64,000 nucleotides of DNA from Eubacteriales bacterium (GTDB taxonomy: Bacteria; Bacillota; Clostridia; Oscillospirales; CAG-382). The notes below the pieces were generated by a model. That model saw only the letters and a program-made list of their open reading frames with translations. It was not told the origin of the DNA and did no database searches. A program made the position numbers and the translations under genes. Shown here in pieces: positions 3,222 to 62,197 of the stretch. Each line of letters starts with the position of its first letter. Positions within the stretch are counted from its first letter, which is position 1. The DNA lies in the NCBI GenBank assembly GCA_045612545.1, contig JAZKZH010000034.1, positions 1,556 through 65,555 on the forward strand. The letters are read 5' to 3'.

Positions 3222-3518
3222 ATGGTCATTCACGAGTATTACGTTTACATCCTGACCAACAAGACCAATTCCGTTTTATACAGCGGTGTGACCAACAGCC
3301 TTTCCAATCGGTTGGCACAACACAAAGAAGGCTCTGCAACCCATTTTACCGCACGGTACAACACCCACAAATTGGTGTATTTTGAACCCTTTTCCGGAAT
3401 CGAAAACGCCATCTCCCGGGAAAAACAGCCCAAACGTTGGACCCGTGAGAAGAAAAACCTTTTAATCGAAGCAAAAAACCCAAATTGGGATGATCTGAGC
3501 AATCAGTTCCCCATTTGA
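3222..3518 (+). CDS. stand-alone GIY-YIG nuclease family protein (UPF0213/COG2827-like), copy 1
   Basis: YYVYILTNKTNSVLYSGVTN (GIY-YIG), ...RLAQHK... and REKQ.KRW motifs. 98 aa, with 79/98 residues identical to the copy at 6349-6645. Confidence 0.85.
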   Translation: MVIHEYYVYILTNKTNSVLYSGVTNSLSNRLAQHKEGSATHFTARYNTHKLVYFEPFSGIENAISREKQPKRWTREKKNLLIEAKNPNWDDLSNQFPI

Positions 3519-5298: not shown

Positions 5299-5841
5299 AT
5301 GGCATTGAAATGTATTGTTTTGGAAAATAACCCCGATAAGGAAGTGCGCCACGCCGCCGTTCTGGAAGCCGTACGGAAGTATTTCGGCTCCGACGAAGTC
5401 ATGGTCAACTACGGTGCGACGGGCAAGCCCTCCATCACCGGCGCAAAGAAGTATATCTCTGTCACCACCACCGGCGATAAGATGATCGTTGCTCTTTCCG
5501 ATTCCCCCGTAGGTCTGGACGGAGAGTATCTCCCCCGTTACAGCGAGGGCAAGACGGATTACGCCATTCTGGCGGACAGATTCTTCTCCGGCGAGGAATC
5601 CGAGTACGTCCATGCAGGCTCTACCGTGGCGGAGGAAAAGGATCGCTTTATGAAGATCTGGACCCGCAAGGAAGCTTACGTAAAATGCACCGGCAAGGGT
5701 GTGGCAGACTTCCCCGCCTTCTCCGTTCTCGAGGGAGATAAATTCCTCTCCAAGGTGGGCAATATTCCTCTGCGGAAGTTCTCCATCTCCTTTGAAGGAT
5801 CTGAAAACTACCTCTTCGCCATTGCGGGAGAGCTGAAGTGA
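5299..5841 (+). CDS. 4'-phosphopantetheinyl transferase superfamily protein (Sfp-type)
   Basis: GLDGEYL (metal-binding D.E) and WTRKEAYVKCTGKG motifs. ATG 5299 follows the ytfJ stop. Confidence 0.7.
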   Translation: MALKCIVLENNPDKEVRHAAVLEAVRKYFGSDEVMVNYGATGKPSITGAKKYISVTTTGDKMIVALSDSPVGLDGEYLPRYSEGKTDYAILADRFFSGEESEYVHAGSTVAEEKDRFMKIWTRKEAYVKCTGKGVADFPAFSVLEGDKFLSKVGNIPLRKFSISFEGSENYLFAIAGELK

Positions 5842-5977
5842 CATAAATGTCAATGCCGTTTTTGATGTCGGCGAGGCAAACCTACGCATAAGCCGGAAGC
5901 CGTCCGCCGACTTGGTCACCTCTGAGCAACCCAGCCCGTTGGGCTGGCTCGCGCGGAATAGAGCCGTTACGGCTTCT
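5842..5977. repeat. module-C copy plus a GTCACCTCTGAGC terminus-like piece and a hairpin
   Basis: 5850-5919 reads ..GCCGTTTTTGATGTCGGCGAGGCAAACCTACGCATAAGCCGGAAGC..GCCGACTTGGTCA, followed by the hairpin CCCAGCCCGTTGGGCTGG. Confidence 0.7.
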
Positions 5978-6348: not shown

Positions 6349-6645
6349 ATGGTCGTTCACGATTATTACGTTTACATACTGACCAACAAGACCAACAGCG
6401 TTTTATACATCGGTGTCACCAACAGCCTGTCCCACAGGCTGGCACAGCATAAAGAAAGCGGGGAAAATCACTTCTCCGCACGGTACAACACCCACAAATT
6501 GGTGTATTTTGAACCCTTTGCAGGGGTGGATAACGCCATCTCCCGAGAAAAGCAGTTAAAACGCTGGACACGGGAAAAGAAAAACCTTTTGATTCAATCC
6601 AAAAACCCAAATTGGGAGGATCTGGGCGGTCAGTTTCCGCTTTGA
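6349..6645 (+). CDS. stand-alone GIY-YIG nuclease family protein, copy 2
   Basis: Same length (98 aa) and motifs as 3222-3518. ATG 6349 lies 56 nt after the CTCAGAATGAC terminus. Confidence 0.85.
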   Translation: MVVHDYYVYILTNKTNSVLYIGVTNSLSHRLAQHKESGENHFSARYNTHKLVYFEPFAGVDNAISREKQLKRWTREKKNLLIQSKNPNWEDLGGQFPL

Positions 6646-14838: not shown

Positions 14839-15246
14839 TTAGATCTTTCCTCTGTTCTGGATCACCTTTGCCAACACGCCGTTGATAAAGGAAACCGCCT
14901 TTTCGCTATCCAGAAGTCTTGCCAGCTCCAAGGCCTCGTTGACCGCGATCTCATCGGGGGTGGGCTGGGGCAGACAGCAAAGCTCTGCGGTGGCAAGGCG
15001 CAAAATGGCAAGGCTCACCTTGTTGATACGCTTGAAGCTCCAATTGTCGGACGCATCGGAAATTCTGGCGTCCACTTCCTCCAGATTGTCGATGACAGTT
15101 TCAAACAACATTCTGGCAAAGCCGCTGGTGGTTTCCCCTCTCTCCTCCACTGCGGTCTGCACGATGGTGTCAACGCTCAGCTCCGGCTGGCAGGCATATT
15201 CATAGAGGTAACAAACTGCTTTTTCTCTCGATTCCCGTCTGGTCAT
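14839..15246 (-). CDS. nusB: transcription antitermination factor NusB
   Basis: MTRRESREKAVCYLYE...ILRLATAEL....P..VAINEALELA.. is the NusB pattern. Confidence 0.85.
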   Translation of the reverse strand: MTRRESREKAVCYLYEYACQPELSVDTIVQTAVEERGETTSGFARMLFETVIDNLEEVDARISDASDNWSFKRINKVSLAILRLATAELCCLPQPTPDEIAVNEALELARLLDSEKAVSFINGVLAKVIQNRGKI

Positions 15247-15449
15247 ACCATAAGAATCCTTTCTGTTTTGTCAATCATAGTTCAGTATAGCATTGTTAAA
15301 GGAAAAAGTCAATGGGGAGAGAATCTACTTTTTTTCTTTTTGGAAAGAAAAAAAGTAGCGCAAAAAAAGAAAACCCGGTGCCAAAAACTGTCGTTTTTGG
15401 GAGGAAGAATATATTTTATAAGCAAAACCAAAAGATGAACGCCGACTTG

Positions 15450-15738
15450 GTCATCTCTGAGCATACCAACCCTGCGGGTTGGCGAGTCGAAATTTTCGTA
15501 GTGAGGCATGGCCGAACGGAGAAAATCAAGGGGTGCTTGCACCCCGAAGGGATCTCCTCAAAGTCTGATCTACCCCTACAAAGGCAAACTTACATCCTTT
15601 GTGATAAAACAGTTCTTTAGCCTCGGAAAAGTATATCAGACTCTCAGTAGATCCCGCCTGCGGCGCTTTTTGATGCTCAGCGCTACGCGCTTCGACTACA
15701 AAAAGTTCGACTCACGCTTCGCGTTCGCTCAGGATGAC
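15450..15738. repeat. nested-palindrome composite element, copy E3 (289 bp)
   Basis: GTCATCTCTGAG at 15450, core at 15549-15655, CTCAGGATGAC ending at 15738. Arm stems are ATTTTC/GAAAAT (left) and CTTTTTG/CAAAAAG (right). Confidence 0.8.
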
Positions 15739-15778
15739 ACGCAGACATAGCCGCATACCGCCGACTTGGTCATCCTGA

Positions 15779-16206
15779 GCGGAGCAGGCGTGGAATAATG
15801 TTGTACCTTAGGTTGCAATGAGAAAAGCCTGCGGAGTCGAAGTTTCCGCAGTTCAGGCGCAGCCGAACAGCGGAAACCAAGGGGTGCTTGCACCCCGAAG
15901 GGATCTCCTCAAAGTCTGATCTACCCCTACAAAGGCAAACTTACATCCTTTGTGATAAAACAGTTCTTTAGCCTCGGAAAGGTATATCAGACTCTCAGTA
16001 GATCCCGCCTGCGGCGGTTTTTGCCGCTCAGCGCCGCATTGCACCAACCCAAGAAAAACAGCTTGCCTGTTTTTCATGTCGGCGGTATACCGTTATCTAT
16101 GCACCATACGCAATGCGCCGACTTCGACTGCAAAAACTTCGACGTGCGCGGAGATGACTGTATTGCACAGCCGTAACGACTACGACCCGCGCGTGCTCAG
16201 GATGAC
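15779..16206. repeat. nested-palindrome composite element, copy E3b (428 bp, right arm carries an internal insertion)
   Basis: GTCATCCTGAG at 15779, core at 15900-16006, CTCAGGATGAC at 16196-16206. Arm stems are GTTTCCG/CGGAAAC and GTTTTTGC/GCAAAAAC. Confidence 0.8.
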
Positions 16207-16220
16207 ACGTAGCCGCTACG

Positions 16221-16370
16221 GTTCCAAAAACGACTTGTCGTTTTTGACGTCTGCGAAACAAAACTACGCATAAACCGAAGGATGACCAAGTCGGCACAAT
16301 GCTTTTGGTTTAAGCGTAGTTTTGCTATGCCGACGTCAAAAACAGCTAATGCTGTTTTTGTTGGATTTTG
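16221..16370. repeat. two module-C copies in head-to-head (inverted) arrangement
   Basis: GTTCCAAAAACGACTTGTCGTTTTTGACGTC...ACTACGCATAA...GACCAAGTCGGC...TTAAGCGTAGTTTTGCTATGCCGACGTCAAAAACAGCTAATGCTGTTTTTG. Confidence 0.7.
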
Positions 16371-16460
16371 TTCGATTCCGCGCGGCCAACCCGCAGGTGT
16401 GCTATGCCCTCCCCCCTCTAAAAAAATCCTTTCTCCACCAAAGAAAATTTCCCATTTCCC

Positions 16461-16489
16461 TTGATTTTTTTATTAATATATTATATAAT
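16461..16489 (+). promoter_or_regulatory. candidate dnaA promoter inside an AT-rich tract
   Basis: TTGATT (16461-16466), 17-nt spacer, TATAAT (16484-16489). The surrounding 16463-16515 is almost pure A/T. Confidence 0.5.
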
Positions 16490-16537
16490 ACTATATCTAA
16501 GCATCTAATTACGCCGTAGGTCGGAAGGAGTGTGTGC

Positions 16538-17863
16538 ATGGACCAGTTTGCAGAGCTGAAAAACATCATATTAGAGGAGCTGGGGAAGCAGTATGCCTCC
16601 ACCATCATCACCCTTTGGTTTGATAAAATGGAGATCACCGAGATCACCGATTCGGAGGTCACACTGTCCTTCCCCGCATCCCGCAAGCTGTTTGTGGAGG
16701 CCAATTACAGTGCCGTCCTCACCGAGACCTTTGCCTCTGTTTTGGGCGTTAAGGTGGACGTAAAGTTTATCTCCCCCGAAGAGGTCAAGGAGCAGGAAGC
16801 CCCCCAGCCGGAGCCCGAGAAGCAGAAGAACGCTTATCAGACCCGTTTCAATGCGGACTACACCTTTGAGACCTTCATCGTGGGCAAATCCAACCAGCTT
16901 GCCCATACCGCCGCCATGGCGGTGGCCAAGAACCCCTTCCATCTGAACAACCCGCTATACCTCTACGGCCCCTCCGGCTTGGGCAAGACCCATTTGCTCT
17001 ACGCCATTATGGCCAAGCTCCGTGAGGATCATCCCGAATATTCCATTCTCTACGTCACCGGCGAGGAATTCACCATCGATATGATCGAGTCCCTTGCCCA
17101 GCACAACCCCGCCGCTCTCCGCGAGAAGTACCGCAGTGTGGACGTGCTGTTGGTGGACGATATCCAGTTCATTTCCGGCAAGATCGGTGTGCAGGAGGAG
17201 TTCTTCCACACCTTCGAGACCTTGTTCCGCCAAAACAAGCAGCTGATCATCGCCTCCGACGTAGCGCCGGAACGGATCGACAACTTAGAAGACCGTCTCC
17301 GCGGCAGATTCTCCATGGGCTTGGTGGCAGACATTCAGCCCCCGGATCTGGAGCTTCGCACCGCTATCTTCCGCAGAAAAGCCCTGGATTTCGGCTTTGA
17401 CCTGGATTTCTCCGTGCTGAACTACCTGGCGGAGAACATCACCCGCAACATCCGTCAGATCGAGGGCGCTATCAAAAAGCTCCGCGCCCACTGCTTCCTG
17501 ACCGGTGATAAATGCACCGTGAAGATCGCAGAGCTGGTTCTGGGCGAGTTCTTAAAGACCAAGGCCTCCGCGGATACCATGTTCGAGAAGGTTCTGGAAT
17601 ACGCCTCCAAGAAGTACATGGTCTCCACCGAGGATATTCTGGGTAACAAGCGTACCGCCAACATCGTATCGGCAAGACACTTCGCCGTCTATATGGTGCG
17701 TAAGACCACTACTTACTCCCAGAAGCAGATCGCTGAGCTGTTTAAGCGCAAGGATCACACCACCATCATCAACTCCATCAACGTCATGGAGCAAAAGGTG
17801 GTCTCCGATCCCATCTTCGCCCGCGAAATGGCCCACACCATCGAGGAAATTTTGCAAGGGTAA
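16538..17863 (+). CDS. dnaA: chromosomal replication initiator protein DnaA
   Basis: Walker A (LYGPSGLGKTHL), LLVDDIQF, sensor regions and the C-terminal DNA-binding HTH (...ARHFAVYMVRK.T.YS...IAELF.RKDHTTI). ATG 16538 lies 7 nt after GGAGG; GTG 16532 is an alternative. Confidence 0.95.
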   Translation: MDQFAELKNIILEELGKQYASTIITLWFDKMEITEITDSEVTLSFPASRKLFVEANYSAVLTETFASVLGVKVDVKFISPEEVKEQEAPQPEPEKQKNAYQTRFNADYTFETFIVGKSNQLAHTAAMAVAKNPFHLNNPLYLYGPSGLGKTHLLYAIMAKLREDHPEYSILYVTGEEFTIDMIESLAQHNPAALREKYRSVDVLLVDDIQFISGKIGVQEEFFHTFETLFRQNKQLIIASDVAPERIDNLEDRLRGRFSMGLVADIQPPDLELRTAIFRRKALDFGFDLDFSVLNYLAENITRNIRQIEGAIKKLRAHCFLTGDKCTVKIAELVLGEFLKTKASADTMFEKVLEYASKKYMVSTEDILGNKRTANIVSARHFAVYMVRKTTTYSQKQIAELFKRKDHTTIINSINVMEQKVVSDPIFAREMAHTIEEILQG

Positions 17864-20680: not shown

Positions 20681-21445
20681 CGGGAGGTCGAGGCGCCCTC
20701 CCCTACAAACCCGAGCCTTGAAAAACAAAAAAATAAACCTTTTCTCCCGCATAGAAAAAAGTTCATTGCGTGAAAACACGGTTAGATTTTCATTTATACA
20801 TCCTGCGGTTTCGTAGGGGACGGCGCCCTCGACGTCCCGCAAAAATAAAAAGGTGGTCATTTTCTTGACTCTTCCAAAAAGAAAACCAATTCGTTTGAAG
20901 GAATTCAGCTACAGCAACGGCGGATCGTATTTTCTTACACTTTGTGTTCAGGACAGACAAAAGATTTTATCGAAGATAGAGCCGCTTTTTGAATGTAAGT
21001 TTGTTAATGAACTGCCGAGAGACGTTTATCCCTTTGATGGTGATGACAGATACCTACGGGTCATCCCTACGGAGATAGGAAAAATTACGGAGAAATATAT
21101 TTTATCCTCAGAAAAAATACAAGGTGTGATCATTGACGATTACGTGATTATGCCGGATCATGTTCATATTGTTGTTTCTATAACGGATGAGTCGGTTTTA
21201 AAACAAGAGGTAAAAAACGAAAAAATTCCAAAGATCGTTTCCGCATTGAAGCGTTTGATTCAAAAAGAGGTTGGCAGACCGATTTTTCAAAGAGCGTATT
21301 ACGACCACGTGATCCGTAATCACGAGGATTATGAAAATATTTTGGCCTATATTCATCAAAATCCGGCAAGATGGTATTTTCGTCGGTTGAATGGAAAAAT
21401 GAAAGTTGATTGAGATCGGGCGGGAGGTCGAGGAGCCCTCCACCT
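20681..21445 (+). mobile_element. RAYT locus: REP doublet + IS200-like Y1 transposase gene + REP
   Basis: REPs at 20681-20709, 20809-20840 (inverted, ends 12 nt before the ORF) and 21421-21445 (starts 8 nt after the stop). The gene body is AT-rich and the REPs are GC-rich. Confidence 0.75.
20853..21413 (+). CDS. REP-associated tyrosine transposase (IS200-like, HUH/Y1 family)
   Basis: KPIRLKEFSYSNGGSYFLTLCV, HUH motif MPDHVHIVV, and the catalytic-Tyr helix FQRAYYDHVIRNHEDYENILAYIHQNPARW. Confidence 0.8.
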   Translation: MVIFLTLPKRKPIRLKEFSYSNGGSYFLTLCVQDRQKILSKIEPLFECKFVNELPRDVYPFDGDDRYLRVIPTEIGKITEKYILSSEKIQGVIIDDYVIMPDHVHIVVSITDESVLKQEVKNEKIPKIVSALKRLIQKEVGRPIFQRAYYDHVIRNHEDYENILAYIHQNPARWYFRRLNGKMKVD

Positions 21446-24287: not shown

Positions 24288-24429
24288 CCGGGACGCCGAG
24301 GGCGTCGTCCCCTACGGTCATGGACGAGTAGGGAAAGCAGCCGTTACCGATGCAAAAACTTGTTGCGTATACCCTTGTTCGCACAAAACAAGGCGCGTAT
24401 TCGTAGGGGACGACGCCCACGGCGTCCCG
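24288..24429. repeat. REP doublet (two inverted REP hairpins about 80 nt apart) in the gyrB-gyrA spacer
   Basis: CCGGGACGCCGAGGGCGTCGTCCCCTACGG (24288-24317) and TTCGTAGGGGACGACGCCCACGGCGTCCCG (24400-24429). Confidence 0.8.
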
Positions 24430-27690: not shown

Positions 27691-29656
27691 TTATGAAACC
27701 GTCTCCACGGTAAGCTTGACGGCGTTTTGGGAGGTAATGGGGTATTCTGCGGGGATCTCGATGAAGAACATCCACTGCCGTATATCGCAAGTCCCCTCTT
27801 CTCCCGGCCCGGGAACTCTGCGGTCCAGAATCACTTCCACAGTGCCGTCGGTGTGGATCACAACCTCCTTCAGCTTTAAGCTGTTGGAGCCGCTGGTTTC
27901 CATTCGATACACTGCAATGAGGGCGTTCTTTTCAAAAAAGTCTTCATCGTAAACATCCTCGATCTCAATGGGCAGTTCGTTGCCGTAGACCCCGTAATTG
28001 CCGCTTTTGGCGTACTTGTTAAAGAAGGACTGCTTCGCCCAAGGGGTGGCCAGAACGGTGACGTCCGCAGGGGGATTATCGTAATCCAAAAACACCTCCG
28101 CATTTTGATTCTCCGGGTTCAGAACCACCTTTTCGGTAGGCAAATAGGGGATATACCCGCCTTGGGTGCTCTCCTTGATCACGCTGTAACGGAGCTCTAC
28201 CCGCTTGATCTGCTCCCCGTAGGCTTTATCGATGATGTAGAAGTACAATTTTCCTGCCACAGGACCGTCGTACTGATAGCTGGCGCGGTAGCAAACGTCG
28301 AAATAAGCCGTGCCGTCGGAATATATATCGATTCCGCCGCTTCCCACGATCAAGCCCTGATCGGTGCCTTCGCCGTAGCCCCAGATCAAAGCCTTTTTCT
28401 CAAAGAACTCATCGTCGAACATATCCGCATAATCCGCCGTACGGCGAGCATACTCCTCCATCACGGCGATCAGCGACTGTCGATTGGTAACCACCGAAGC
28501 AAGAGGGCCGTCGCCCTCGTACAAAGGCAGATTCACCATCCCGTATCCTTGGCTAAAGGGTACATGGACAGGCACCTCCACCGAGGGAGGCGGCGGGCAG
28601 TCAACCTTTGTATAGAAGTGGCTGTAGCTTGCGGCAGGGTGATCTGCGGGGATCTCAAACAGGAAGACTTTTCCCCCTGCCGTGGGGTTGTCGGGATTCG
28701 GGTTGGGGCAGCTGAACAGCGCATTGACCTCTTTTTCGTTACTGATCAATCCCTCGAAGGTGACCTCTGCGGAGGCGTCCCACAGGTAGACGTACACGCC
28801 GATGAAGCAAGTTTTTTCAAAATCCACCTTCACAAAGGGATCCCAAACGGTATCCGGCAAATAGCCGTAGGGGCAATAGAGACCCATAAAGGAATTCATT
28901 TTTTTCTGGGAGTTCAGCAGTCTTGCCTCGCTTCCTTCAAAAGCCCCTGCCTCCTGAGAGTAGCAATAAACCGTGTATCCCTTCAGCTCCACGGGCGTTT
29001 CCGCTGTGACGGGAACGTCCCGAGAGATCTCCGCCAAAAGCACCCAGCCTGCCATGTCATCAGTTCCGAAGCCTGTGGAATACTCGTTAAAAGTCCATTC
29101 CAAAACGCCGTTTTTCAGCCAAACCGATTCCGTTCCCAGCCGATGCGACCCGCTTCCCACGGGGGTATAGGCGGCAAGGAGTCTGTGGTTCTCAAAATAC
29201 GCCGCGTCGTAGCGATCCTCCAGCTTAACTTCGCCGCCGTACAGGGCGAAAGAAGCGTACTTTTCAAAAAACGCCTGCTTTTCTTCCACGGTGCTGAGTA
29301 CCACCGCAAATCGGTCGTCTTCGTCATAGCGTACCTGCGCCGCTTGGGTGGGCGCATCGATCCAAAGGTCTGTTTCTTCCGGCTCTTCCGGTTCTTTGGG
29401 TTCTTCGGAGGTCTCACCCGGTTCTTCCGGCTCTGCGGGGGTCTCACCGGGCTCTTCGGAGGGTTCTTCGGAGGTGTCACCGGGCTCTTCGGAGGGTTCT
29501 GTGGGTTCTTCGGAAGAAGCCTCCTCCGAGGGCGCAGAGGAAGAATTCACGGCCTCCTCCTTGGATTTCCCCCTTGGATTCCTCCACGGGAAGGGCGGGC
29601 TGACAGGCGGTGAACAGCACCACAGCACACAAAAGCAAAACGAAGATCTTTTTCAT
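27691..29656 (-). pseudogene. multi-domain secreted lipoprotein gene, apparently frameshifted at a C5/G5 run (or phase-variable)
   Basis: A lipoprotein signal MKKIFVLLLCAVVLFTAC starts at 29656 but is in the -1 frame relative to the 645-codon ORF 27691-29628. The two frames would join if the C5 run at 29569-29573 were C4. Confidence 0.6.
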
Positions 29657-29707: not shown

Positions 29708-30586
29708 CTACTCGGCCTCCTCCACGGTAAGCTTTACGGGATTTTCCGAGGTGATGGGATGCTCCACGGGAATCTCGATGAAGAACATCCACTGCCGAAT
29801 ATCGCAAGTCCCCTCTTCTCCCGGCCCGGGAACTCTGCGGTCCAGAATCACTTCCACAGTGCCGTCGGTGTGGATCACAACCTCCTTCAGCTTTAAGCTG
29901 TTGGAGCCGCTGTTTTCCTCCCGAAACACCGCCAGGAGAGAATTCTTCTCAAAGAACGCCTTGTCGTACCGCTCCTCGATTTCAAGAGGCCGAGGGTTGC
30001 CGTTTTGGTCATAATGGGGGCTTTGGGCGTACTTTGCAAAATAACTTTTCTTTGCCTGCAGAGAAGTCAGCACTGTCACGTCGGCGGGAGGCTCTCCCTT
30101 TTCAAATACCTTCGCATTTTGATTCTCCGGGTTCAGAACCACCTTTTCGGCGGGTACGTAGGGCGCGGGTGCTGCGCAGGGAGGGTCAGGCTCCTCCCCG
30201 GATTCATCTGTTTCCGGCCTTTCCCACTCCTCGGAATAGTCCGGCTCCTCGGAATAGACCGGCTCCTCGGAATAGTCCGGCTCCTCGGAATAGACCGGCT
30301 CTTCGGAATAGTCCGACTCCTCCTGTTCGGGCTGCCCTCCCGGCAGGGACACGGGCGGTTTGGAATCGCCTTGCAGGCTCTCCTCATCCCCCGCGATTTC
30401 CGATGAAGGCGGCAGGGAGGGTGACTCCGCAGGAGATGCCAACTGCCACACCCCGAAGCCCAAGGGCAGACAAATACACAAGAGCAGACACGCCGCCAAG
30501 GCGTGGTGGATATGCCGTTTGCGGGCGTTTCTTTTTGCCTCGCCGCGGCGTTTGATCTCACGGCTGATGGCAATATAATCTTTCAT
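29708..30586 (-). CDS. single-pass membrane protein, probable anti-sigma factor of the adjacent ECF sigma
   Basis: Starts 8 nt after the sigma gene stop. Short basic N-terminus, TM segment ALAACLLLCICLPLGFGVW, (YSEEP[VD])n linker. The C-terminal domain is paralogous to the lipoprotein domains. Confidence 0.45.
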   Translation of the reverse strand: MKDYIAISREIKRRGEAKRNARKRHIHHALAACLLLCICLPLGFGVWQLASPAESPSLPPSSEIAGDEESLQGDSKPPVSLPGGQPEQEESDYSEEPVYSEEPDYSEEPVYSEEPDYSEEWERPETDESGEEPDPPCAAPAPYVPAEKVVLNPENQNAKVFEKGEPPADVTVLTSLQAKKSYFAKYAQSPHYDQNGNPRPLEIEERYDKAFFEKNSLLAVFREENSGSNSLKLKEVVIHTDGTVEVILDRRVPGPGEEGTCDIRQWMFFIEIPVEHPITSENPVKLTVEEAE

Positions 30587-31154: not shown

Positions 31155-31358
31155 GGTGTGATACCTTCCTTTCTGCTTGTTATACAATCGAAACGGGAAA
31201 ATTCCTCAGCGTTTTTTGATTTTTTTTGAAAAAAGGACCCTCGTGGGGATAAGGTCAGCCCCTACGGGGCGGATGAGGTTCCTATTGACAAAAACAGCAA
31301 GCTGTTTTTGGAACCTTGGGATCGAGGTAAGAGGCGGGGACGTTTCCAACGTCAGCGT

Positions 31359-31701
31359 GTCATTCTGAGGGAGCCCGAAGGGCGAGTCGAAGTTTTGCGG
31401 AGAAAACAAGGTGCATACAGCGGCATAAAAGCAGTTTGCTTTTTGATCTGCATCGGCCGCGATGCACCGTTCGGAGCAAAACCGCCGCAGGCGGGATCTA
31501 CTGAGAGTCTGATGTTCCTTACCAAAGGAAAAGAACTGTTTTATCACAAAGGATGTAAGTTTGCCTTTGTAGGGGTAGATCAAATTCGTAGGAGATCCCT
31601 TCGGGGTGCAAGCACCCCTTGGTTTTGCTCCATCCTTCGTCGCGTTGCTACGACTACTTCCGCAAAACTTCGACTCACGCTTCGCGTTCGCTCAGGATGA
31701 C
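31359..31701. repeat. nested-palindrome composite element, copy E4 (343 bp, core inverted)
   Basis: GTCATTCTGAG at 31359, GAGTCGAAGTTTTGCGGAG, GGAGCAAAACC, core at 31493-31599, GGTTTTGCTCC, TCCGCAAAACTTCGAC, CTCAGGATGAC ending at 31701. Confidence 0.85.
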
Positions 31702-31761
31702 AGAAGCCGTGGCAGTTCGATTCCGCGCTTGCCAACCCGCAGGGTTGGTATGCTCAGAGAT

Positions 31762-31910
31762 GACCAAGTCGGCGTATGGCTGTATACCGTTCATCACTGC
31801 ATACCGCCGACGTCAAAAACGACAAGTCGTTTTTGGAACTGCGGTGCGAAGACCAAGTCGGCGTATGGCTGCATACCACGCTTGACTGTGTACCGCCGAC
31901 GTCCCAAAAA
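31762..31910. repeat. two module-C copies (second truncated)
   Basis: GACCAAGTCGGCGTATGGCTG.ATACC...CCGCCGACGTCAAAAACGACAAGTCGTTTTTGG, then GACCAAGTCGGCGTATGGCTGCATACC...CCGCCGACGTCCC. Confidence 0.7.
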
Positions 31911-35888: not shown

Positions 35889-36187
35889 GTCATCCTGAGC
35901 AAGCCGCGAATGCGGCGCGTCGAAGTTTTGCGGAGAAAGCAAGGTGCTTTAGCACCGTTCGGAGCAAAACCGAAGCCTGCGATAGCGGGCTGAGGGATCT
36001 CCTACGAGTTTGATCTACCCCTACATGGATAAACTTACATCCTTTTTTGATGGAACAGTTCTTTACCCCCCCCAAAAAGGAACATCAGACTCTCAGTAGA
36101 TCCCGCCTGCGGCGCTTTTTGATGCTCAGCGCTACGCGCTTCGACTACAAAAAGTTCGACTCACGCTTCGCGTTCGCTCAGGATGAC
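35889..36187. repeat. nested-palindrome composite element, copy E5 (299 bp)
   Basis: GTCATCCTGAG at 35889, core at 35994-36104, right arm CTTTTTG/CAAAAAG identical to the right arm of E3, CTCAGGATGAC ending at 36187. Confidence 0.8.
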
Positions 36188-40921: not shown

Positions 40922-41100
40922 CCATCTCTGAGCATACATTTCAAAACGCAAGGCTTGGAAGGATGTAAGTTTACCCGTGAAGGGGTAGATCGGACTCATA
41001 GGAGACCCCTCAACCTGCAAGCAGGTCTCGGTTTCCTTCGCTCAGCTTCGCTTCGACTACGGAAACTTCGACTCGCGCGAGCGCGCTCGCTCAGGGTGAC
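40922..41100. repeat. truncated composite element, copy E6
   Basis: CATCTCTGAGC at 40922, half core (GGATGTAAGTTTACCCGTGAAGGGGTAGATCGGACTCATAGGAGACCCC), right arm GTTTCC/GGAAAC, CTCAGGGTGAC ending at 41100. Confidence 0.65.
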
Positions 41101-51322: not shown

Positions 51323-51676
51323 GTCATCCTTGAGCTCAGGTTTGCAAGCAAACCGTCGAAGTTTTGCGGAAGTAGTCGTCGCAACGCGACGAGGGATGGA
51401 GCAAAACCGCCGCAGGCGGGATCTCATAAGAGTCTGATGTTCCTTTCTGTAACGAGAGAACTGTTTTATCACAAAGGATGTAAGTTTACTTTTCAAGGGG
51501 TAGATCAGACTTTGAGGAGACCCCTTGCGGTTTTGCTTTTTAGAAATTGCTGTGGAAGACAGAACCACTTCCAAGATTTCGGGGCAATTTCAAAAAGCAA
51601 AACTTCGACTCCGCAGGCTTTTCTCATTGCAACCTAAGGTACAACATTATTCCGCGCCTGCTTCGCTCAGGGTGAC
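51323..51676. repeat. nested-palindrome composite element, copy E7a (354 bp, core inverted; mirror image of E1)
   Basis: GTCATCCTTGAG at 51323, core at 51418-51524, the same TTGCAACCTAAGGTACAACATTATTCC insert as E1/E3b, CTCAGGGTGAC ending at 51676. Confidence 0.8.
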
Positions 51677-51755
51677 CAAGTCGGCGTTCAGCCTTTGGCT
51701 TATGCGTAGGTTTGCCTCGCCGACGTCAAAAACAGCTAAGGCTGTTTTTGTTGGG
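51674..51755. repeat. module-C copy
   Basis: GACCAAGTCGGCGTTCAGCCTTTGGCTTATGCGTAGGTTTGCCTCGCCGACGTCAAAAACAGCTAAGGCTGTTTTTG. Confidence 0.7.
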
Positions 51756-51878
51756 TTTTGTTCCATCCCGCGCGACCAACCCGCAGGGTTGGTATGCGTA
51801 GGATGTCATCTTTATGTGGGGTTGGATGTTTATGTAACTTTGTTACGTAACTTTGTAAGGAATAAAGCCTTCCTCATC

Positions 51879-51955
51879 CCAAGTCGGCGCAGGGCTTTTG
51901 TCTTATGCGTAGTTTTGTTTCGCCGACGTCAAAAACGGCAAGCCGTTTTTGGAAC
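51879..51955. repeat. module-C copy
   Basis: CCAAGTCGGCGCAGGGCTTTTGTCTTATGCGTAGTTTTGTTTCGCCGACGTCAAAAACGGCAAGCCGTTTTTGG. Confidence 0.7.
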
Positions 51956-51969
51956 TGTAACGGCTACGT

Positions 51970-52286
51970 GTCATCCTGAGCACGCGCGGGTCGTAGTAGA
52001 TGTGGCTACGCATTACAGTCATCTCCGCGCACGTCGAAGTTTTGCGTAGGTGAGCGTAGCGAACGAAGCAAAACCGCCGCAGGGGGGATCTACTGAGAGT
52101 CTGATATACCTTTTTGGGGGGTAAAGAACTGTTTTATCACAAAAAATGTAAGTTTACCTATGTAGGGGTAGATCAAATTCGTAGGAGATCCCTTCGGGGT
52201 GCAAGCACCCCTTGATTTTCTCCGTTCGGCCATGCCTCGACTACGAAAATTTCGACGGCTTGCTTGCAAGCCTACTCAGAGATGAC
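51970..52286. repeat. nested-palindrome composite element, copy E7b (317 bp, core inverted)
   Basis: GTCATCCTGAG at 51970, core at 52085-52192, right arm ATTTTC/GAAAAT (same variant as the left arm of E3), CTCAGAGATGAC ending at 52286. Confidence 0.8.
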
Positions 52287-55236: not shown

Positions 55237-55315
55237 GTGAAACATTTTCACGTGAAACGTTTTCACAGTGAAACATTTTCACAGTGAAACGTTTTCACAG
55301 TGAAACATTTTCTGC
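55237..55315. repeat. array 1: five tandem copies of GTGAAACRTTTTCAC(A)
   Basis: Copies start at 55237, 55252, 55268, 55284 and 55300. Position 8 alternates A,G,A,G,A. The array is preceded by the perfect palindrome GTTTCACGTGAAAC. Confidence 0.9.
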
Positions 55316-55676
55316 GTGATATAAACTCGGCGACGATCCTTGGACCACCCGTTTTTATTGCTCTTACTTCTTCGTTAAGTGGATTTTACGGGCCGCCGTG
55401 GGCGTCGGCCCCTACGGACCCGAAATGGGATTGTGGGAACCACGGCATTTTCTCCCGCAAGCATTACGGCGAGAAAACCGATTTGCGCCCATCTGATTAC
55501 GTGGGAACACGGTGCGATTTTGTGGACGCTATATGCGTATTCGTAGGGGACGACGTCCACGGCGGCCCGCTTGAAAATCTAAGTATACTTAAGCTTTTTT
55601 GTGAAAAATGCTCAAAATCCTCTGCCCCGCGGATCTTTAATGCGGCAAGCAATTGTTTCGCGCGGACTTGTTTCAC

Positions 55677-55752
55677 GTGAAACATTTTCACGTGAAACAT
55701 TTTCACAGTGAAACATTTTCACAGTGAAACATTTTCTTGTGAAACATTTTCG
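55677..55752. repeat. array 2: five tandem copies of GTGAAACATTTTCAC(A)
   Basis: Copies start at 55677, 55692, 55708, 55724 and 55739. The array is preceded by GTTTCACGTGAAAC. Confidence 0.9.
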
Positions 55753-62002: not shown

Positions 62003-62120
62003 TATCCGCTTTGCGGATGAAAAAGTTGAAAAGGCAGAGAGACGGAAAAACCGTGATTCTCTGCCTTTTTTTGTGTGTGGGATCGATCCGCTTCCCACTC
62101 TTTGTATCCAAAGCACTGCA

Positions 62121-62197
62121 GTTCCGAAAACAGCTTTGCTGTTTTTGATGTCGGCGAAACGATGCTACGCATGACATAAAGCCCTGCGCCGACTTAA
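62121..62197. repeat. module-C copy whose end overlaps a stop codon
   Basis: GTTCCGAAAACAGCTTTGCTGTTTTTGATGTCGGCGAAACGATGCTACGCATGACATAAAGCCCTGCGCCGACTTAATC. The TTA (TAA on the minus strand) at 62194-62196 is the stop of the next gene. Confidence 0.65.

Follow-up and report, generated by a model that had tools for sequence, protein, structure and literature searches.

The nusB-dnaA spacer and its composite repeats

The present work concerns a family of composite palindromic repeats in a 64-kb stretch of DNA (the window, to which all coordinates refer) from an uncultured gut Clostridia lineage, and in particular the self-complementary arms of those repeats at positions 15450-16206. This region is a part of a 1.1-kb non-coding block made wholly of repeat modules, which is bordered on one side by a gene of the NusB family (Pfam; 14839-15246, minus strand) and on the other by an open reading frame (ORF) at 16532-17863, read from its position and N-terminal sequence as a putative dnaA, and which sits between outward-facing promoter matches of the two genes. 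The repeats fill the nusB-dnaA spacer (15420-16410) beside a dnaA-dnaN-recF cluster, named from gene order and size, and in the relatives the same spacer holds elements or contig breaks too (loci L042, L028, L043 and L061; handles in L denote loci outside the window), which would place the repeats, in several species, at the presumed origin of replication or next to it. The best-conserved piece of the family, GATCTACCCCT-N8-AAANTTACAT, occurs in nine copies in the window against none expected, and every copy is intergenic; the elements are numbered from E1 to E7b. The sequencing runs of DNA that contain the window come mostly from bovine-gut or other gut metagenomes, and a literature search with the outer repeat sequence returned chance primer matches only.

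A composite consists of two half-units arranged head to head around a conserved centre of 90 nt. Read on its own strand, the half-unit has the order GTCAYCC-TGAG-(hairpin 1)-GAGTCGAA-(arm)-C-(hairpin 3)-GGRTCTC and a length of 88-106 nt, the arm length ranging from 35 to 126 nt. There are 32 distinct versions of it, in which hairpin 1, the arm and hairpin 3 are freely recombined, each of them being always intact. Solo half-units are found at 40963 of the window and at the orthologous locus L059. At four other loci (L022:4790-5170, L061 on the minus strand, L040 and L030) a palindromic element of ~330 nt, with the ends GGAACCTCATCC...GGATGAGGTTCC, takes the place of the core's right part just after AAACTTACAT(YY)CTT, the result being a recurrent composite of a left half-unit and the other element.

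Two composites, E3 and E3b, lie in the region. On the plus strand, the left half of E3 starts with the outer half of a split motif, GTCATCTCTGAG (15450-15461), in which GTC is the 5' flank and ATC.C the 5' strand of the outer stem (stem I), covarying with the inner half GGGATCTCC. There follow hairpin 1, CCAACCC-TGC-GGGTTGG (15466-15482), the conserved junction block GAGTCGAA (15484-15491), which is the counterpart of AAGTCGAG in the canonical SRM motifs considered below, the left arm (15492-15526) with the basal stem ATTTTC (15492-15497) / GAAAAT (15521-15526), hairpin 3, GGGGTGC-TT-GCACCCC (15530-15545), and the left inner half GGGATCTCC (15549-15557), whose GGAT is the 3' strand of stem I and is followed by C. 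The centre (15558-15646, plus strand) is asymmetric and contains the invariant GATCTACCCCT..AAACTTACAT. The right half, read on the minus strand, comprises the inner half GGGATCTAC (15647-15655), the arm (15666-15705; basal stem CTTTTTG 15666-15672 / CAAAAAG 15699-15705, interior GTAGTCGAAGCGC-GTA-GCGCTGAGCAT), and, at 15706-15738, the junction TTCGACTC, hairpin 1 (ACGC-TTC-GCGT) and the outer half CTCAGGATGAC (15728-15738). E3b is laid out in the same way, with the left outer half GTCATCCTGAG (15769-15779), the left arm (15842-15877; basal stem GTTTCCGC 15842-15849 / GCGGAAAC 15870-15877), for which a single-stranded DNA (ssDNA) hairpin of -14.4 kcal/mol is predicted (z = -6.1), and the left inner half GGGATCTCC (15900-15908), all on the plus strand; on the minus strand there are the right arm (16017-16137), the two strands of whose basal stem, GTTTTTGC (16017-16024) and GCAAAAAC (16130-16137), are 105 nt apart and whose apical part holds a further nested hairpin module, and the stretch 16138-16206 with the junction TTCGAC and the outer half CTCAGGATGAC (16196-16206).

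Complementarity of the arm and outer stems

In the preliminary description, six different heptamer pairs next to the conserved TTCGAC had been reported to keep their complementarity while differing in sequence, and on direct reading all six are at the given places within 1 nt; the E3 right pair CTTTTTG/CAAAAAG is itself correct, only its start having been placed one nucleotide away from the true 15666. The E3b left pair extends to GTTTCCG(C)/(G)CGGAAAC, the pair GTTTTGC/GCAAAAC is found in E1, E2, E4, E5-left, E7a and E7b-right, and GTTTCC/GGAAAC is located at 41031-41066. The recurrence of arm variants noted there also holds: the arm of E7b at 52215-52250 is near-identical to the left arm of E3, from which it differs by one inserted interior base, and the arm of E5 at 36115-36154 is identical to the right arm of E3.

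The sample was made up of the window and of 71 loci from a single search of species-representative genomes for the core pattern, 70 of them in five related metagenome-assembled genomes (MAGs) and one a chance archaeal match. Two of the five MAGs are Eubacteriales, two are Clostridia, obtained from sheep rectum and buffalo caecum, and one belongs to the Oscillospiraceae; their identity to the window is 76-92% across the flanking genes, their contigs often break within the repeats, and many copies lie at contig ends. From the 87 core copies extracted, 140 arms (77 left, 63 right) were parsed in six genomes, the arm ends being set by the flanking anchors alone (TCGAA on one side, the core junction on the other), with no use of complementarity. 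Viral contigs gave 0 matches to the core pattern and 20 to an arm pattern, all of the latter being chance, non-hairpin matches.

The window contributes 17 parsed arms, and all of them are paired at the anchor-fixed positions. The 140 arms fall into at least eight stem classes, all self-complementary: GTTTTGC/GCAAAAC (93 arms perfect, ~105 with the single-mismatch variants included), GTTTCCGC/GCGGAAAC (9 arms), GTTTTTGC/GCAAAAAC (8), CTTTTTG/CAAAAAG (7), ATTTTC/GAAAAT (4), GTTTCTG/CAGAAAC (2), GTTTCC/GGAAAC (1) and CTTTTTGC/GCAAAAAG (1); a further subfamily, outside the parsed set, carries CTTCCGT/ACGGAAG or ACTCG/CGAGT beside TTCGAC (E2, L021). A single mismatch occurs in about a dozen of the 140 arms, with G.T commoner than A.C, which is compatible with DNA or RNA, and the only clear non-complementary chimera (1/140, in L040) is a single crossover of two arm types (GTTTCCGC ... 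GAGAAAAT). 

The stems were counted on an alignment of 25 distinct end-anchored stems taken from the 140 arms, because the MAFFT alignment of whole half-units is structurally inconsistent in the T-runs. In the former, 88.0% of the cells are paired, as against 72.6 +/- 1.9 after shuffling (0/500), and the covariation score is 0.401 against 0.147 (0/500), falling to 0.188 or lower when the partner is slid by 1-3 columns. Both sides change in five of the eight stem pairs, while stem positions 3 and 4 are invariant T-A pairs and position 2 is nearly so (23/25). A stem with a T.G wobble, GTTTCTGC/GCGGAAAC, bridges the classes GTTTCCGC/GCGGAAAC and GTTTCTG/CAGAAAC, as is expected of an intermediate between the two.

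Since the left arms and the right arms belong to a single module family and are inverted relative to each other, the 5' block of a left arm could also pair with the 3' block of the right one. The two arms have differing stems in 29 of the 53 complete elements, where the within-arm pairing amounts to 192/203 and 197/203 (95-97%), as compared with 139/203 and 138/203 (68%) across the arms; the pairing of the arms is local, not cross-arm. The short arms (35-40 nt) are homologous, with the basal stem followed by a conserved (G/C)(T/C)AGTCGARG segment and, further in, by a C-G pair with tandem G.A, an apical stem varying with compensation (GCGC/GCGC, GTGC/GCAC, GGC/GCC) and mostly a GNA triloop. 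These triloops, adjoining the tandem G.A pairs, mostly have a closing C-G pair, as has GCGAAGC, known as a DNA mini-hairpin of unusual stability. In the long arm type, present in 46 copies, the 20-bp stem hardly varies and the interior varies strongly, with mean minor-allele counts of 1.3 in paired and 3.85 in unpaired columns, an approximately threefold difference. 

Complementarity at a much longer range is found between the outer and inner junctions of a half-unit. In the left halves, GTCA[C/T]CC of the outer and GG[G/A]TCTC of the inner junction combine as C-G in 44 cases, T-A in 24, T.G in 4 and C.A in 1 (Fisher p = 4e-14), with the strands 80-250 nt apart, and the right halves have T-A in 60 cases and T.G in one. 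The shared types of hairpin 1 or of the arm occur with both the C-G and the T-A states, and the pairing stays concordant. In the common type of element, the left half is C-G and the right half T-A, so that pairing across the halves would leave a C.A mismatch in the outermost helix and a G.T wobble in the inner one (48/71 copies). Concordance within the halves and mismatch across them make the half-unit the self-consistent entity for the outer stem, as for the arms.

The suggestion of the preliminary description that hairpin formation at this position is under selection is thus supported by the covariation, the local pairing, the lone chimera and the conserved stem columns. Its reservation, that arms spread as units and the independent events are few, is also borne out by the recurrence of identical arms and by the swapping of whole modules; one and the same arm interior is seen with two different basal stems, and, given that arms recur and move whole and that conversion of the interior is possible, the independent base-pair switches are estimated at only about 6-8. 

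The same observations allow for an origin of the complementarity in which functional selection has no part, with palindromic units being inherited and shuffled and their strands matched by templated (quasi-palindrome) correction or gene conversion. Such an origin would agree with the identical arms across elements and genomes, with the free recombination of modules at conserved junctions, with the interior that has two basal stems (conversion of the interior only could yield it) and with the small number of compensatory events needed, and in these data selection is not fully separable from templated palindrome correction. It is, however, judged somewhat unlikely: internal mismatches, bulges and tandem G.A pairs are conserved where correction would have left perfect palindromes, the long helix that joins the halves keeps the fixed mismatches described above, a wobble intermediate is found, the stem columns are about three times less polymorphic than the interiors of the same copies, and the outer halves are matched at a distance across differing modules, which short-range templated repair fails to explain.

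GIY-YIG genes and a proposed expanded recognition motif

Two genes for small GIY-YIG proteins of 98 aa, 81% identical to each other, are located on the plus strand of the window beside the elements, the first (3222-3518) ~100 nt downstream of the end of E1 and the second (6349-6645) ~55 nt downstream of the CTCAGAATGAC of E2. Both proteins are single-domain (Pfam GIY-YIG over residues 6-78, E = 3e-16 and 3e-17), have a 107-aa UPF0213 protein, 1ZG2, as their sole relative in the PDB (E = 5e-4), and match no specific model in NCBIfam. The arrangement of gene and element is syntenic in L027, L028, L039 and L042.

Scanning of metagenome contigs with the protein of gene 2 gave 80 homologue loci at 47-60% identity. 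The published SRM pattern, HGTCWY N0-2 YYVSBRH N0-5 WNVSBRG N0-2 RNCYNB (PMC11893778), taken strictly, has 19 sites in 11 of these 80 loci, mostly abutting the gene, and some of the motifs at the homologue loci, e.g. TGTCATTCCCGCGTAGGCGGGAATCTCC, are near-identical to the NTS of Neisseria. A generalised motif, in which GTC precedes a 5-nt stem with A as its first base, a loop of 4-70 nt, the complementary stem and C, reaches a density of 5.8 per kb at distances of up to 200 nt from the homologue genes (66/80 loci), as against 0.35 per kb farther away and 0.13 per kb in shuffles; a common canonical version of 30 nt beside the homologues is TGTCATCCCGAGCGAAGTCGAGGGATCTC. At L101, L102 and L131, distant GIY-YIG homologues are accompanied by enlarged motifs, with 55-75 nt between GTCAT and GGATCT, one of which starts with GTCATCCTGAGGGAGCCCTTCGAC, and loop expansion may accordingly be recurrent in this family.

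When its three hairpins are left out, the half-unit reads TGTCATCC-TGAGCGAA-GTCGAAG-GGGATCTC, i.e. nearly the same string as TGTCATCCCGAGCGAAGTCGAGGGATCTC, and by this near-identity GTCGAA/TTCGAC would be the 3' strand of an inner stem. The arm would then be inserted DNA that separates the 3' strand of the inner stem from that of the outer one, and the half-unit, as ssDNA, might fold into a four-way junction (cloverleaf), whose 5' strand is continuous through the outer and inner stems and from whose 3' strand the arm and hairpin 3 branch off. The outer stem AYCC/GGRT, flanked by GTC and C, would form only once the inserted DNA has closed upon itself; the arm would have to close, and because of this its basal 6-8 bp would stay complementary while sequence, interior and length vary.

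The properties published for the nuclease SsnA (Chenal et al. 2025, PMC11893778) would be compatible with such an expanded motif. SsnA has been shown to act on ssDNA only, neither on duplex DNA nor on RNA, and to cut only one strand; binding depends most on the C after the palindrome and cutting on the three bases that precede the palindrome, loop identity is dispensable, and split half-sites and loop extensions are still cut (PMC11893778). Both of the critical features are found here, as GTC...GGAT-C.

Most likely, then, the arms close hairpins inserted in the ssDNA recognition motif of a small Ssn-type GIY-YIG nuclease, the composite being an elaborate variant of the Ssn system described in 2025. 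The local nuclease is a candidate for the recognising factor, and this points to DNA over RNA: the fold would form in ssDNA, the expanded motif would be recognised by the local enzyme, and that recognition would be the selective force on the stems. Regarding the role of the arm stems, the chances are considered about even that they keep the inserted DNA folded so that the split motif can assemble in ssDNA. More tentatively, and with appreciable doubt, the half-element may be envisaged as a natural ssDNA cloverleaf of ~95 nt, with three variable hairpins and a closing stem of 4-5 bp, subject to compensatory evolution and read by the GIY-YIG protein. Such a cloverleaf would be a DNA counterpart of structured RNAs with expansion segments, the arms being tolerated or even useful, and breaks induced by the nuclease at its sites might drive the shuffling of modules among the copies.

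Several observations weigh against this interpretation. The published SRM pattern has 0 matches in the 64-kb window, although the NTS controls do match, and the inserts were removed by eye to match the local unit to the canonical motif. Every half-unit has GTC-AYCC ... GGRT-C, but the 4-5 bp outer stem is missing from the nearest-neighbour folds of half-units, in which the arms and side hairpins are recovered, and whole-element folding favours cross-half pairing in silico. The C-G/T-A switch of the outer stem may go back to a single event or a few, carried by two lineages, the independent adjacencies of gene and element number only two or three, the others being syntenic copies, and no arm-less version that would show the arms to be insertions is present in the six genomes. 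The repeat modules also occur in metatranscriptome contigs, and their transcription is possible.

This last point leads to the explanation by RNA structure, in which the elements are transcribed and the arm helices stabilise or terminate transcripts or belong to a mobile small RNA; it is held to be unlikely. The contigs in question come from four metatranscriptome runs, which are strandless and may reflect DNA, the unique flanks having zero depth. An RNA would also be in keeping with the excess of G.U-compatible over A.C mismatches on the strand read, with the GC hairpins at the arm borders, which have T-runs after them and resemble weak terminators, and with the tandem gene contexts, where 12 copies are co-oriented and 4 anti-oriented. 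However, the orientation bias relative to genes that the nine window copies had hinted at is largely gone at 44 informative copies, those between convergent genes being as many as those between divergent ones (14 each), the mirror-image halves read alike on opposite strands with the same constraints on both, the arm types are used in either orientation, and the block itself has on its two sides the promoter matches of nusB and dnaA, which point away from it. Among Rfam families, only a tRNA elsewhere in the window reaches the gathering thresholds, and nothing meaningful is found in 15250-16530 even at E <= 10. In the conserved centre, likewise considered as a structured RNA, the candidate hairpin around AAACTTACAT shows no compensation, and the sole structure given by RNAalifold is the long imperfect helix that joins the two halves. 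The GCGAAGC-like triloops with their tandem G.A pairs and the link to a nuclease both favour DNA.

If the arms do close hairpins within an Ssn-type site, such sites can grow into large multi-hairpin ssDNA structures that keep only the short flanks and the closing stem required by the enzyme, as a natural counterpart of the cutting of split sites and loop extensions in vitro, and chromosomal ssDNA structures would be trackable by covariation in the way that RNAs are. This would also provide a wider search pattern for Ssn sites, the present one missing this lineage completely, and a defined set of substrates, arms with the stem disrupted or restored, for a nuclease family of biotechnological interest. 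If this reading is wrong, the arms are ordinary hairpin repeats inherited as units.

Other repeat systems and minor repeats of the window

A second hairpin-repeat system is present in the same window, namely a gene like those of the transposases associated with repetitive extragenic palindromic (REP) sequences, i.e. of the REP-associated tyrosine transposases (RAYTs), together with its own REPs. The gene, an ORF at 20853-21413, has matches to NCBIfam REP_Tyr_transpos (E = 1.7e-19, 70 bits, below the cut-off of 80) and to Pfam Y1_Tnp, and as many arms have GTAG ahead of a GC-rich hairpin and about half of the short arm types carry GTAGTCGAGG followed by a stem, the arms could be taken for the REP-like ssDNA sites of this RAYT-like enzyme. 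This is quite improbable: the gene is bracketed by its own GTAG-footed REP, GTAGGGGACG..CGTCCC (20681-21445), which recurs at 24306, 24403, 54124, 55104 and 55543 and is absent from the arms, many arm types are without GTAG (CAGT, CGGA, CTTT), no element copy flanks the gene, and no RAYT homologue is encoded in the 71 element-bearing loci. The RAYT and its REPs are a system separate from the arms.

Scarcely credible is a reading of the heptamers as terminal inverted repeats of small nested miniature inverted-repeat transposable elements (MITEs), recognised by a transposase as double-stranded DNA with no hairpin, even though the whole composite is palindromic and intergenic, breaks assemblies (many copies being at contig ends) and at one orthologous locus has opposite orientations in two genomes, for at least eight end sequences, differing by 1-3 bases, coexist in the same genomes, each always matched with its own complement, which is not predicted for a protein reading a fixed duplex, and neither target-site duplications nor arm-less sites are seen, nor a DDE-type transposase beside the copies among the few ORFs screened. 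The orthologous intergenic regions of the relatives all hold elements, with different modules or orientation, and offer no clean empty sites. Between 31330-31860 of the window and L004:1-460, the whole element is inverted relative to the flanking gene and the outer modules differ, which could be due to inversion between the mirror halves or to independent turnover.

Among the known systems, the Ssn system with its NTS and SRM repeats shares with the composites a small single-domain GIY-YIG gene beside hairpin repeats, many intergenic copies, a repeat that starts here with GTCAT and finishes with GGAT-C-TC, and canonical motifs at the homologues of the local gene, some of them nearly the Neisseria NTS; that split sites and extended loops are tolerated, as published, suits an expanded motif. 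The Ssn system differs in that here three internal hairpins, the arms included, are obligatory and would have enlarged the motif from ~30 nt to 90-250 nt, in that two units stand head to head around a conserved 90-nt centre and the published pattern fails, and in its host, here the uncultured gut lineage. With the REP, BIME and REPIN-RAYT repeats, the arms have in common that they are short GC-rich imperfect palindromes in many intergenic copies and mosaics, some of them GTAG-footed; repeats of this kind are presumed to be recognised in the form of ssDNA hairpins, and a RAYT with its REPs is at hand in the window. The arms, in contrast, are never free-standing, being always placed between GTCGAA and the inner junction, their sequence is unlike that of the RAYT-flanking REP, and the neighbouring gene is of the GIY-YIG and not of the HUH-Y1 type.

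The attC sites of integrons are also folded as ssDNA and keep structure over sequence, short conserved boxes flanking a self-pairing centre of variable length, like the arms. However, there is no integrase, cassette array or R/L boxes here, GTTTTGC/GCAAAAC misfits GTTRRRY/RYYYAAC, and several hairpins branch from one junction. Modular intergenic mosaics of hairpin repeats with recombination of modules are likewise typical of the NIMEs bounded by dRS3, of Correia and BOX elements and of ERIC-type MITEs, from which the composites differ in sequences, host and the fixed module order per half-unit, as well as in that no target duplications and no evidence of transposition are seen here. The dRS3 overlaps the NTS, which links the NIMEs to Ssn (PMC11893778).

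Other repeats are found beside the composites or elsewhere in the window. A module family adjacent to the composites (2555-2727, 5833-5916, 16215-16343, 31770-31900, 51676-51939 and 62116-62172) consists of a terminator-like hairpin AAAAACGnnnnCGTTTTT, followed by GACGTCGGCG ... CGCCGACTTGGTC, and often occurs as inverted pairs. At 55252-55335 and 55692-55743, a self-complementary 16-bp unit, GTGAAACGTTTTCACA, forms arrays within two tandem units of 439-440 bp. Short-period tandem repeats at 29399-29515 (18 nt) and 30204-30340 (12-30 nt) are apparently coding on the minus strand and probably correspond to protein repeats.

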